From: an uncultured Bifidobacteriaceae bacterium | Lineage (GTDB): Bacteria; Bacteroidota; Bacteroidia; UKL13-3 | DNA: 64,000 nucleotides | Reading direction: 5' to 3' | NCBI GenBank assembly: GCA_964535575.1 | Contig: CAZHTC010000012.1 | Location: 6,027 to 70,026 of the forward strand | Shown: positions 12,001 to 18,000 of the stretch, in pieces | How positions within the stretch are numbered: position 1 is the stretch's first letter | Layout: the number at the start of each line of letters is the position of its first letter | Position numbers: made by a program

Positions 12001-15000
12001 AATTCGTTTAGGCGCTCCCCCAAAATATACCAACCCGAATGAATGAAATTATCAAATGAGGTTTTTAATTCATCCGAGATATCGGCATTCATTTGTTTAA
12101 AGGAAAGAAACGGGACCTCCATTTTTTGCGCGTATGTAATTAATGCTACTGATTTGCCGGATTTATTTCCACCTGGTAAGAAATTCTTCTTTATCACGAA
12201 TATAATCGCTTGCCTGATACTTGGTGGAGGCAAGTGCTAACTGAACTGCATTGTGAGAATATTCCATTGTATGCCACACGTTTGGAGGAATATAAACTCC
12301 TTGTTGAGGAGATTGTAGGGTAAATTGTTTTTTTTCTCCTTGTGCACTTTCAGTTGTTACAATAATTTTTCCTGAAACAGCAATAAGAATCTGTTCAGTG
12401 TGGTGATGAGCATGCCGTCCTCTAGTAATACTTTCAGGGGTATAATAGGTCCAAAATATGCGTTGAACAATAAACGGAAGTTGATTGTTTTCTGCAACGG
12501 TGATATAACCGATAGCCGATTCACCGATTTTCCCAAACTCTATTATGTAGGGAGATTGATAGTCCATTTTGTGAATGTGTTGTTGTTTTCAATCTCCATT
12601 AGGATATTATCTATAGCTAATTCAGAGTTGAGTAAATCTGATATGGGTGATTTTTTTACCTTAAAATATGCCAGAAATGAATCTAATAACTTTGCTTTTG
12701 GCCGGTTAGTCACAAGTAAATTATTGAATCAGGAACTTTCTGATTTGGGTAGATTCTTTTGATATAATTCTAATCAGATACGAACCCTTAGCTAAACCTG
12801 ACGTATTCAATTTGAACAACGAATTACCTGTATTATCAAACTGGCTTATGCTAAAAGTTCTTCCTGATAAATCAGTAATTTCAACGGTAACTTTACCCTT
12901 AACCGATCCGGCAGAAATAGTAACTTCCGACTGTGCGGGGTTTGGGAAAATAGTTATCCCGGTTGTTTCATTTGAAACTTTTACCATTCTAACTTCTGAA
13001 TAGCTTACATCGCCATTAAAATCCTGTTGCTTTATACGGTAAAATATAACTGCTTTGCCTGTCAGTTCATCATCACTATCAACAAACCGATAGGTTGAAA
13101 CGGTACTGGTGTTTTCGTTGCCTTTAATGAAGTTTACGGAAACAAAGTGAATGCCGTCAAATGAACGTTCTACTTCAAATCCTTTATTATTTACTTCACT
13201 TGCTGTTGACCATTCCAGTAAGTTTGCGTTTTTATCAATAGATTTTGCATCAAATGATAGCCAGGTAACAGGTAATGGATTTGTACCTCCGGTTGCATTC
13301 GCTAAAACAAAATCGCTGAAGCTGGTAAAATTCGTTGTTGATTCGATTGTACCGCTTGTAACAGCACTCCCGGTTCCTCCCAAATCAACCCAATTTGCGC
13401 CACTTTCCTTAAGTATTCTAAGGGAGGAAGTTTGGTTTACACCATCATCAGCTTCGTAGGTAATGGTAACTTTTGCTGCGGTAACGGCAGAAGGGCCACC
13501 ATTACTGATGGTAAAATATCTCATGGGTGAAACGTGTGTAATTCCACCGGGTAAAGTTCTGGATGGAGGCGCTGTGTTAAACATTTCAGCCGTATAGGTA
13601 GTAGCCGAACCACTACTTTGAGTTACCTTTAAGATAACCGGCCTGTAATCAGTTCCTTTACCAATTGGGAAGGTAAGGGGAGTTAATGAACCGGTGTTGG
13701 TATTTTGAATAGACAGTGGACCATTAATAAATGCTGATGCAGAGGCCCCGGAAATTGAACTTCCGGCACCCATAATCAGGATGTTTGTACTTGATGTAGT
13801 TAAAATGTCATTTAAAGTAAGGGTGGAGTTAACGGTAATTGGTTGGTTTAATGTAGTTGGTATATTTACAGTAAAGTTGCCATAGGTAGCAGTTGAGGCA
13901 GCACTTGCAATACCACCATTTCCAAGGGTACTTCCGTTATTTGAAATAACGGTTCCATTAATTGTAACTGTGTTAGCGGCAATTTTGCAGGCAGTTCCAG
14001 ATGGCATGTTTACAATTCCACCTGAATTCACTGTAAAAGTACCGAATCTTTCAGATGCAGTTCTGGCAATAGTAACACTATTCATATTTAATGTAGCCCC
14101 GGAGTTTATAGTTAATGAGCCTGTTCCAACACTTCCGTTATCTGGTCTTATTGCACCGCCCGCTGTAATATCCATAGTCACCTGTCCCGAAGCAATGGTA
14201 ATACTTCCGGCCCTTAGGTTTGTTTTGATCGTAGCAACATCAGAAGCGGAGTTCATGGCAAATTCAAGCGTCCATCCATTAAAATTGCTTGGAACCCCCC
14301 ATTCACCGGTTGAAGTCACATCCCTTGATGTTCCTGTAATTTGAATTTTGCCTGTACCTGTTTTAATAAAATCAGCATGATTGTTTAATCCGGTGGAATT
14401 AGCACCGGGAACATTTCCTTTAGAACCGGTGTATGTTCTTAATTTACCGGAAACGGCAAGGGTGAACGATTGGCAATTTAATCGACCTACATCTGTGCTA
14501 AGGTCTGCATTTAGATGCAAGTCTTTACATGCCGAGTTGGCAGAAAGTACCACCGAGTCCCCATCCTGAATATACACATTTGTGCTGGAAGTAGGTGTGG
14601 AAGCAGCGGCTACCCAGGCCGAACCATTCCATGTTTCCCATGTTGCGGCAGTACTCCAGTCCCCATCGGTGGCGGTTCTGAAATCACCGGAATTGATTTG
14701 CGTAATATTTGCGAGGACAAAATCGCCAAACGTGGTAAAGTTAGTAGTAGAGGTGATGGTTCCTGCCAATGAGGTAGCGCCCGAAGCACCAATATCGTCC
14801 CATGCGGTTGAGTTTTCGTGTGCAATTTTAAGAGCAGTATGATTGCTTATTCCATCATCGGCACCATAATCCAAAGCAATGGTATTTGTACCGGTAACGG
14901 TAGAACCGGATCCTTTCACCACATTCCAATACCTCATGGACGATACGTTGGTAAGTGTTCCCAGAGTTCTTGAAGTAGGGGCTGTGTTAAAAAGTTCAGC

Positions 15001-18000
15001 TGTATACACCGTTGGGGTGGCATCGGTATGATTTAGATTAAGGACTAATTTTCTGTAATAGGCGCCTTTCCCGATTTGAAAGGTAAGGGTAGGAGTGGTA
15101 GAGGCAGCGGTAAGAGCCAGCGGGCCATCAATATAATTGGAAGAAGAAGCACCAGAAATAGAACCGGAAGCTCCCATGGTCAGCAGGTTGGATGATGAAG
15201 TTGTGAGTTTACCTCCAAGTGTAAGTGTTCCACTTACGGAAATGGCAGAACTCAAAGTAATAGAGGTGCCGGTTGTCAGGTTTGCGTAGGTGTTTGTAGT
15301 AGCTGCGCTGGAAATGCTACCATTTCCTAGCATGGTGGTGCTATTACAAATTACAGTACCGTTTAACGTTACTGTACTGGCAGCAATTTTACCTGCTACA
15401 CCAGATGGAATGGTTAACGTAGCACCAGAATTTAAGGTAAAAGTACCGAATCTTTCAGATGCAGTTCTGGCAATAGTAACACTATTCATATTTAATGTAG
15501 CCCCGGAGTTTATAGTTAATGAGCCTGTTCCAACACTTCCGTTATCTGGTCTTATTGCACCGCCCGCTGTAATATCCATAGTCACCTGTCCCGAAGCAAT
15601 GGTAATACTTCCGGCCCTTAGGTTTGTTTTGATCGTAGCAACATCAGAAGCGGAGTTCATGGCAAATTCAAGCGTCCATCCATTAAAATTGCTTGGAACC
15701 CCCCATTCACCGGTTGAAGTCACATCCCTTGATGTTCCTGTAATTTGAATTTTGCCTGTACCTGTTTTAATAAAATCAGCATGATTGTTTAATCCGGTGG
15801 AATTAGCACCGGGAACATTTCCTTTAGAACCGGTGTATGTTCTTAATTTACCGGAAACGGCAAGGGTGAACGATTGGCAATTTAATCGACCTACATCTGT
15901 GCTAAGGTCTGCATTTAGATGCAAGTCTTTACATGCCGAGTTGGCAGAAAGTACCACCGAGTCCCCATCCTGAATATACACATTTGTGCTGGAAGTAGGT
16001 GTGGAAGCAGCGGCTACCCAGGCCGAACCATTCCATGTTTCCCATGTTGCGGCAGTACTCCAGTCCCCATCGGTGGCGGTTCTGAAATCACCGGAATTGA
16101 TTTGCGTAATATTTGCGAGGACAAAATCGCCAAACGTGGTAAAGTTAGTAGTAGAGGTGATGGTTCCTGCCAATGAGGTAGCGCCCGAAGCACCAATATC
16201 GTCCCATGCGGTTGAGTTTTCGTGTGCAATTTTAAGAGCAGTATGATTGCTTATTCCATCATCGGCACCATAATCCAAAGCAATGGTATTTGTACCGGTA
16301 ACGGTAGAACCGGATCCTTTCACCACATTCCAATACCTCATGGACGATACGTTGGTAAGTGTTCCCAGAGTTCTTGAAGTAGGGGCTGTGTTAAAAAGTT
16401 CAGCTGTATACACCGTTGGGGTGGCATCGGTATGATTTAGATTAAGGACTAATTTTCTGTAATAGGCGCCTTTCCCGATTTGAAAGGTAAGGGTAGGAGT
16501 GGTAGAGGCAGCGGTAAGAGCCAGCGGGCCATCAATATAATTGGAAGAAGAAGCACCAGAAATAGAACCGGAAGCTCCCATGGTCAGCAGGTTGGATGAT
16601 GAAGTTGTGAGTTTACCTCCAAGTGTAAGTGTTCCACTTACGGAAATGGCAGAACTCAAAGTAATAGAGGTGCCGGTTGTCAGGTTTGCGTAGGTGTTTG
16701 TAGTAGCTGCGCTGGAAATGCTACCATTTCCTAGCATGGTGGTGCTATTACAAATTACAGTACCGTTTAACGTTACTGTACTGGCAGCAATTTTACCTGC
16801 TACACCAGATGGAATGGTTAACGTAGCACCAGAATTTAACGTAAAAAGTGAAAACCTCTCCGAGGCAGTTCGCGCTACGGTTGTACTGTTTAGATTTAGA
16901 GTAGCACCTGAATTAACAGTGAGTGTACCAGTTCCAACGCTTCCATTATCCGGTCTCAATGCGCCTCCTACACCAATATCCATGGTAACAGTACCGGCAG
17001 CAATGATAATACTTCCTGCCCGGATGTTTGTTTTGATGGTAGCCACATCTGAAGAAGAATTCATGGCAAATTCAAGTGTCCATCCATTAAAATTGGTTGG
17101 AATCCCCCATTCACCGGCTAAGGTAACGTCCCTAGTAGTACCAGTAATTTGGATTTTACCGGTACCGGTTTTAATAAAATCTGCATGATTATTTGTACCG
17201 ACTACGCTTGTACCCGGAATGGTTCCATGGCTACCGGTATAGGTTCTAAGTTTACCAAATACTGACAAAGTGAATGATTGACAATTCAAGCGACCTACAT
17301 CTGTACTTAAGTCCGCATTTAAGTGTAAATCTTTACAAGAAGAATTTCCAGTAAGAACTACAGAATCGCCATCCTGAATAAAAACGGCAGTACTTGAGGT
17401 TGGGGTTCCGGAAGCAGCATTCCAAGTTGACCCATTAAATGTTTCCCAGGTTGAGGTTGAACTCCAGTCGCCATCAGTTGCAGTTCTGAAATCACCTGCT
17501 ACCTGAGCTCTGGAAACGTTACAAAAAAGGAATAAAAATATTAGTAGAGTATGGAAAACTTTCATACGGTTTTTGGTTTATTAAAATGTCGTAACAAAAT
17601 TAACCGTAATTCTCAGAAAAATCCAAATTCTATCGGTTTTTTAATCCCCAAAATGTTATCAAATCATTTCCGGTGAATGCACTTAATTGAATTAAGTCAT
17701 CTTTAAGTAAATCAGTTAGTTTTGATTTAAACGAATCTCTCAACGGTTGAAATCTGTTCATTTTAATTTCGAACAATGACCTGAACTGCCATTTTACTGA
17801 CCGGGGGAGAGAATATATTATAGGAAGTCGCGCTATTATAGTTCCTAATTTAGTTAGGTTTCTTACTTCCTCTGTTTTGTTTTTATGGGTTTCTAATAAA
17901 ACACTTTCATGGTCGCCAAGATGTCGAATGTTAAGAAAATCAAAGATACTGTTCAATGTTTGTTGTCTGTTTGAAATGAAATCTTCAAACAAGCAAATAT

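Follow-up and report, generated by a model that had tools for sequence, protein, structure and literature searches.

Periscope Proteins are bacterial surface proteins of variable length, such as SasG, Rib, Sgo_0707, and CdrA, in which DNA-identical tandem copies of a folded repeat differ in number between close relatives (Whelan et al. 2021, PMC8201768). In that account, recombination within the gene is proposed to drive the variation, and short-read assemblies miscount the repeats (PMC8201768). Chromosomal tandem duplications of bacteria, as treated by Anderson and Roth and by Reams and Roth in part of a review (PMC7661048), lie head to tail around a novel join point, can form without long homology, and are expected to be lost or expanded by homologous recombination between the copies; the same part of the review presents their instability as established. 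A third described group is the type A cargo of the type IX secretion system (T9SS) of Bacteroidota, which combines an N-terminal signal peptide with a sorting domain at the C terminus (C-terminal domain [CTD]). Here, we describe a gene that resembles each of these in part. It lies in a 64,000-nt stretch of DNA from an uncultured Bacteroidota bacterium (GTDB lineage UKL13-3; assembly GCA_964535575.1, contig CAZHTC010000012.1, positions 6,027 to 70,026), which was analyzed at its full length and is called the window below. The gene encodes a predicted T9SS cargo protein with three repeat units. We put the probability at roughly 0.85 that it descends from a two-unit ancestral cargo gene by a recent, single, in-register duplication that left an exact 1,404-bp tandem copy.

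The gene, its units, the two copies of the duplicated block, and the junction between them have the following window coordinates.

12721..17565, minus strand: repeat gene, 4,845 nt, encoding a 1,614-aa protein (from the open reading frame [ORF] list, translation, Pfam, and NCBIfam)
16093..17496, minus strand: unit 1, aa 24 to 491, parental type, beginning at the GDFR unit start
14689..16092, minus strand: unit 2, aa 492 to 959, hybrid, with codons 1 to 219 unit-3-like and the C-part unit-1-like
13291..14688, minus strand: unit 3, aa 960 to 1425, parental type, beginning at the GDFR unit start
15437..16839, no strand assigned: duplicated block, copy 1, made of the unit 1 C-part plus the unit 2 N-part
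14033..15435, no strand assigned: duplicated block, copy 2, made of the unit 2 C-part plus the unit 3 N-part
15430..15442, no strand assigned: novel hybrid junction, unit-1-type below 15436 and unit-3-type above it (plus strand), from three- and five-way alignments

When the window was compared with itself at a shift of 1,404 nt, positions 14033-15435 and 15437-16839 matched in one unbroken run: 1,403 nt without a mismatch. With a repeat period of 1,404 nt (468 codons), the copies lie head to tail and in frame. The base bounding the exact run differs across all three units (T at 14032, G at 15436, and C at 16840). Units 1 and 3 are 73% identical in nucleotides and 80% in amino acids over their N-halves and 59% and 52% identical, respectively, over their C-halves. 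A chance match is excluded, because 1,403 straight matches stand against this background identity of 59 to 73%. Units 1 and 3 differ at 479 sites, and at these informative positions unit 2 carries 175 unit-3-type bases, 1 odd base, and 303 unit-1-type bases, with no patchiness. Unit 2 is a single-switch chimera of units 1 and 3. Tandem Repeats Finder, whose longest period is 500, reported nothing at the array.

A preliminary description of this DNA had reported that units 1 and 2 are identical over their distal halves and units 2 and 3 over their proximal halves, and it had read the pattern as a staggered mosaic produced by exchanges between tandem copies. The shifted self-comparison reproduced both identities, but they are the two halves of one exact run and reflect one duplication of one period, not several exchanges. 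The staggering is only apparent: the unit borders as drawn (17496/16093/14689) do not coincide with the border of the duplication. The remaining halves had been put at 60 to 80% amino acid identity, a range that fits the N-half (80%) and is slightly high for the C-half (52%). The switch had been placed near the TASERF motif, at unit residue about 215; it lies at unit codon 219, with TASERF beginning at unit residue 210. That the switch recurs at the same point in each unit follows automatically, within the window, from one duplication.

The best database match to the protein, P0001, is 90% identical and has 1,146 aa (1,614 minus 468) in two units. It is encoded by a gene of 3,441 nt (4,845 minus 1,404) on L001, a syntenic contig from an activated-sludge metagenome with 83 to 84% nucleotide identity to the window. 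At the amino acid level, unit 1 matches unit 1 of P0001 at 94% in the N-half and 97% in the C-half, and unit 3 matches unit 2 of P0001 at 94% and 92%. In nucleotides, units 1 and 3 are 81 to 86% identical to their positional orthologues in L001, compared with the 59 to 73% that they share with each other. Since each is closer to its positional orthologue than to the other, units 1 and 3 have undergone no conversion between them since the split from L001. The two copies of the block differ by 0 to 1 per 1,404 nt versus a divergence of about 16% from L001, and the duplication is therefore very young. Two units are likewise present in P0002 and P0003, two further relatives at 58% identity. The preliminary description had also raised antigenic variation, which is at most a conjecture here; the metagenomes that yielded the relatives are environmental, activated sludge among them, and none of these relatives is host-derived.

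Three-unit alleles occur in the sister lineage represented by P0002. P0050, a three-unit protein of 1,633 aa (L040), was found on three contigs, the longest of them 118 kb, and falls in the 90% cluster of P0002. L041, a 349-kb contig of the same cluster, carries a three-unit locus that indels split into two predicted proteins, P0051 (456 aa) and P0052 (985 aa). The split is due to three small indels within about 200 nt, at 5260-5480 of the contig, where unit 1 ends; they look like a consensus error of a long-read or strain-mixed assembly and not like a real pseudogene. L040 with its three units and L042 with two (P0002) both come from Joint Genome Institute (JGI) sample 3300056999. Over the 4 kb upstream of the gene, L040, L041, and L042 are 100% identical, and downstream they are 97.9 to 99.98% identical. 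In both L040 and L041, the middle unit is again a hybrid of a last-unit N-part and a first-unit C-part, more diverged than the hybrid in the window. The junctions lie at about alignment column 960 (L040) and at column 676 or lower (L041), compared with column 665 in the window. Because the junctions lie elsewhere, in-register duplication has occurred more than once in the family. The variation in unit number predicted earlier from the repeat pattern is thus seen between relatives (P0001 has one unit fewer than the window protein, and L040 and L042 have three and two), whereas two- and four-unit forms of the same strain were not found.

Within a genome, the N-halves of the units are 80 to 88% identical, compared with about 65% between lineages, and L042 and L043 have exact in-register tracts of 40 to 167 nt shared between their units. 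Both patterns point to inter-unit conversion over longer times. This concerted evolution, together with the three-unit alleles of the sister lineage, is what an alternative history of the locus can call on: the array would be an old one of three units, partly homogenized by gene conversion, and the two-unit relatives would be deletion derivatives. We consider this history quite improbable. The converted tract would have to be exactly one period long, starting and ending at the same unit position, a coincidence of about 1 in 1,000 that comes automatically with a duplication. None of the 479 informative positions is patchy, units 1 and 3 are nearer to their positional orthologues in L001 than to each other, and three separate relatives have two units. 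Of the two origins first suggested, gene conversion or unequal crossing-over, a recent unequal exchange between tandem copies holds up, while gene conversion fits poorly, as it would need a tract of exactly one period.

The behavior of the locus in an independent assembly provided a further line of evidence. Logan assembles de Bruijn graphs at k=31, retaining each distinct 31-mer a single time and discarding singleton k-mers (PMC12424806). Logan contigs from run SRR11567528, for which a literature search returned no paper, agree with the window at 100% identity. They stop at 14062 and 16810, which on both sides is exactly 30 nt (k-1) into the identical block. Contig ends at this distance imply that the assembly graph branches at both block edges. 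Since such branching requires them, the k-mers of the block-to-block junction must be present in the reads, and, with singletons discarded, at least twice. An assembler could not have invented the junction from a two-unit genome, because the parental units share only 6 nt there, which allows no k-mer overlap. These data bear directly on the possibility that the genome has two units and that the extra copy came from a wrong repeat traversal or a chimeric-read join. Short-read assemblies of related genomes do fail at this gene. In the metagenome-assembled genome (MAG) SW_8 (JAGVLJ01; syntenic, 77 to 78% nucleotide identity), the gene sits on two contig ends (L002, 1-1389, and L005, 4981-5451) with its middle missing and its unit number unreadable, and L032, the sole relative from the metagenome scan, stops within the gene. 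In addition, only one deposited contig carries the protein (P0049, on the 72,131-nt NCBI contig, identical to the window protein), and exact look-up in the gene-position index gave no record of it, despite its entry as P0049 in the cluster table. Set against the position of the Logan breaks, the 6-nt sharing, and the preservation of both frame and register by the duplication, an assembly artifact is largely refuted and very improbable. The Logan contigs L034, L035, L036, and L038 end before the array and are uninformative on it. The earlier warning that short-read assemblies would have trouble with the units was borne out, as contigs break at or inside the array in SW_8, L032, and Logan.

To describe how the duplication may have formed, we compared the three units at the join. 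The coding strand reads ...CTTTTTACG TTAAAT... in unit 1, ...ACTTTTACC TTAAAT... in unit 2, and ...ACTTTTACA GTGAAT... in unit 3. The parental units have the hexamer GTAAAA in common at 15437-15442 (TTTTAC on the coding strand). Next to it, base 15436 is a G that belongs to a Thr codon reading ACC on the coding strand, where the parental units have ACG (unit 1) and ACA (unit 3). The last unit (unit 2) of the orthologue in L001 also has ACC at this codon, matching unit 2 of the window. The simplest account of the odd base is an exchange right after an ancestral unit-3 ACC, followed by one synonymous change in unit 3; alternatively, the base could stem from faulty repair or synthesis at the join.

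The breakpoint falls in the most conserved segment of the protein, just past RTASERF. At the nucleotide level, identity around the join is 58 to 66%, the parental microhomology there is only 6 nt, and the longest in-register exact run between units 1 and 3 is 18 nt and lies away from the junction. A shared tract of the kind used in RecA-type crossover (about 20 to 30 nt or more) was not found at the junction, where 6 nt are shared. Given the 6-nt join, the low local identity, and the 18-nt longest run, the founding event was not classical RecA-dependent crossing-over; judged from these alignments, it would have been RecA-independent or homeologous. The crossing-over proposed in the preliminary description thus stands as an exchange but not in its ordinary, RecA-type homologous form. 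Template switching or slippage at microhomology, or homeologous recombination, are the more likely routes, and both are recognized for duplication formation in the part of the review cited above (PMC7661048). The in-register, in-frame outcome may partly be a matter of survivorship.

We propose that the ancestral gene had two diverged units of 468 aa. One very recent in-register unequal exchange or template switch would have placed codon 220 of the first unit directly behind codon 219 of the last, at the 6-nt microhomology. The arrangement N1-C1-N3-C3 would thereby have become N1-C1-N3-C1-N3-C3, with a gain of 468 aa and with the frame and all units intact. The two perfect repeats of 1,403 bp would now lend themselves well to being deleted by homologous recombination or to expanding further, and because perfect repeats favor both, the population is probably heterogeneous in unit number. 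Current instability in the strain of the window would be expected by analogy with the known behavior of perfect tandem repeats.

Several points weigh against a recent single duplication in a two-unit gene. The odd base at 15436 is left unexplained by a simple exchange between the present-day units. A de Bruijn loop traversed once would yield the deposited structure whatever the true copy count. The sister-lineage contigs are metagenome assemblies, and the several small indels of L041 resemble consensus errors. Finally, exact two-unit and four-unit forms of the window protein are absent from a collection of 15 billion proteins. The loop in the graph also leads to a reading in which the deposited form is the minimal path through that loop and the true array is longer (at least four units) or the population mixed. 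We regard this as possible though on balance doubtful. The topology implied by Logan is the same for two, three, or more copies of the block and for mixed populations, short reads cannot count perfect 1.4-kb repeats, and proteins of the family reach 19 matched stretches. The missing four-unit protein is weak evidence on the other side, and nothing speaks directly against a longer or mixed array. Such an array would refine the duplication of a two-unit gene, with no contradiction between the two.

With the duplication of a two-unit gene as the preferred reading, the locus can be compared with the systems introduced above. As in Periscope Proteins (PMC8201768), tandem folded repeats that are identical in DNA make up a putative surface or secreted protein, close relatives differ in how many they have, recombination within the gene is proposed as the driver, and short-read assemblies miscount. 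The differences are several. One block is duplicated here, in two exact copies, and the outer unit halves are 52 to 80% identical in amino acids and 59 to 73% in nucleotides. The unit has 468 aa and two modules, in contrast to the stalk domains of about 80 to 130 aa in Periscope Proteins. There is no separate N-terminal ligand-binding domain that a stalk could project, as unit 1 starts at aa 24, directly after the signal peptide, and the passenger consists of nothing but the repeated unit. For these three reasons the protein is not filed as a Periscope Protein. Periscope Proteins are, moreover, sortase-anchored or adhesins of Gram-negative pathogens, whereas this protein is a predicted T9SS CTD cargo of environmental Bacteroidota.

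With the chromosomal tandem duplications treated in that part of the review (PMC7661048), the locus shares the head-to-tail order, the novel join point, the possibility of forming without long homology, and the expectation of loss or expansion between the copies. Unlike them, it is intragenic, spans 1.4 kb, and is in register with an existing diverged repeat, so that the outcome is a longer functional protein and not a higher gene dosage. As a genetic event it is a textbook example of tandem duplication; its join point is unusually clean, and no new mechanism is revealed. Its value is that a domain duplication within a gene can be seen here while very young and with its join point cleanly resolved, in an uncultured species of Bacteroidota, and that it suggests a growth route for multi-unit surface proteins, i.e., in-register exchange at microhomology and then homology-driven change in copy number.

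The protein runs, in order, from a signal peptide through units of 468, 468, and 466 aa and a pre-CTD domain of about 113 aa to a T9SS type A sorting domain. The parts outside the units are the following.

17506..17565, minus strand: signal peptide, aa 1 to 20 (MKVFHTLLIFLFLFCNVSRA, followed by Q), read off the translation
12952..13290, minus strand: pre-CTD domain, about 113 aa (GGTNPLPVTWLSF...), from the translation
12727..12951, minus strand: Por_Secre_tail / TIGR04183 type A sorting domain, aa 1539 to 1613 (Pfam, NCBIfam)

The putative signal peptide would have a hydrophobic core and a cleavage site between A and Q. The sorting domain matched PF18962 with an E value of 2.8e-13 (50.4 bits versus a cutoff of 27) and TIGR04183 with an E value of 8.4e-12 (44.9 bits versus a cutoff of 23). 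By its CTD, the gene product is a predicted T9SS type A cargo, and it shares with such cargo of Bacteroidota the N-terminal signal peptide and the sorting domain above curated cutoffs. The protein is probably exported and may be held at the surface via its CTD; the sequence cannot discriminate between attachment and release, and we therefore refer to the product as a putative secreted or cell-surface protein. The Pfam scan found no family match for the pre-CTD domain. On the opposite strand, ORFs of 85 to 164 aa within 13970-17188 recur with a period of 1,404 nt (e.g., 14515-14772/15919-16176 and 15290-15748/16694-17188). These are antisense shadows of the repeat units and not independent genes.

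Unlike that of known T9SS cargo, the passenger has no match to a Pfam or NCBIfam family and no significant fold match in the PDB or BFVD. A profile search with the unit nevertheless found at least 13,901 cluster representatives at an E value of 1e-3 or lower, 2,440 of them at 1e-30 or lower. Two modules occur separately in this family, an N-terminal one (residues 1 to about 326) and a second one (about 183 to 458); the second is present up to 19 times per protein, and some family proteins reach 6,038 aa. An AlphaFold model of the unit, built from 24 aligned sequences, is of high confidence and all-beta, with a predicted local distance difference test (pLDDT) score of 91.1 and a predicted template modeling (pTM) score of 0.91. 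A Foldseek search of the model against the PDB gave no match with an E value below 0.18. In BFVD there was no significant neighbor, with partial weak matches to tail-fibre/pectin-lyase-like proteins (best E value, 1.4e-3), and a profile search of PDB sequences with the unit returned nothing. The strand pattern of the model offers only a suggestion of a beta-solenoid plus beta-sandwich fold. The gene and its family, with its at least 13,901 cluster representatives and no Pfam model, mark spots where metagenome assemblies break or miscount.

The window also contains a paralogue of 1,356 aa at 45230-49300 (plus strand). It has the same N-terminal and second modules in a single unit, which is 46% identical to unit 1, as well as a T9SS sorting domain of its own and a weak ExeM/NucH-like match at aa 1062 to 1195. 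This region is syntenic with contig L027 of MAG SW_8.

The repeat gene is enclosed by a same-strand polysaccharide locus at 10097-24972 (minus strand). Its immediate neighbors are the following.

17630..18514, minus strand: sulfotransferase, upstream neighbor (Pfam Sulfotransfer_1, E value 3.1e-19)
12163..12567, minus strand: FdtA/WxcM-like sugar isomerase, downstream neighbor (Pfam FdtA, E value 2.6e-36)

Besides the sulfotransferase and FdtA, the locus encodes a Wza-like protein and a Wzc-like tyrosine kinase for export, a UDP-glucose dehydrogenase, family 2 glycosyltransferases (GT2s), a DegT protein, and a 246-aa unknown protein. The placement in a polysaccharide locus, including the sulfotransferase neighbor, is kept in L001 and in L040 to L042, i.e., down to 58% protein identity. 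This conservation may indicate that the protein is functionally tied to a sulfated exopolysaccharide. A NusG/UpxY-like gene of 181 aa lies inside the polysaccharide region at 9565-10110 (minus strand); its Pfam NusG match was obtained on Logan contig L033, which is identical. The NusG-like gene of the sister lineage is located directly downstream of the repeat gene, and the order of the locus therefore differs between lineages.

In L042, the 167-nt exact tract between the units covers columns 510-676; it spans the column of the window junction (665) and covers the RTASERF-coding segment. Either gene conversion or a preference for exchange at this site could account for it. Because last-N/first-C hybrids are found in three alleles and this tract lies over the same site, one can imagine that a T9SS family residing in sulfotransferase-containing polysaccharide loci uses the RTASERF-coding segment as a preferred exchange point. 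N- and C-part modules would then be reshuffled between units and alleles, diversifying the length and module combinations of a surface protein across the population, e.g., against phages or grazers. We offer this as speculation and think it unlikely. A recombination hot spot shared between lineages was also considered and is not claimed, as there is one cross-lineage coincidence (column 665 in the L042 tract) and the L040 junction lies elsewhere.

Another set of tandem paralogues was observed at 25021-30003 (minus strand), where three PTR2/MFS peptide transporters of 495, 541, and 588 aa follow one another. A conserved block of about 79 nt lies near their 5' ends (repeat family D3; spacing of 1717 and 1805 nt).

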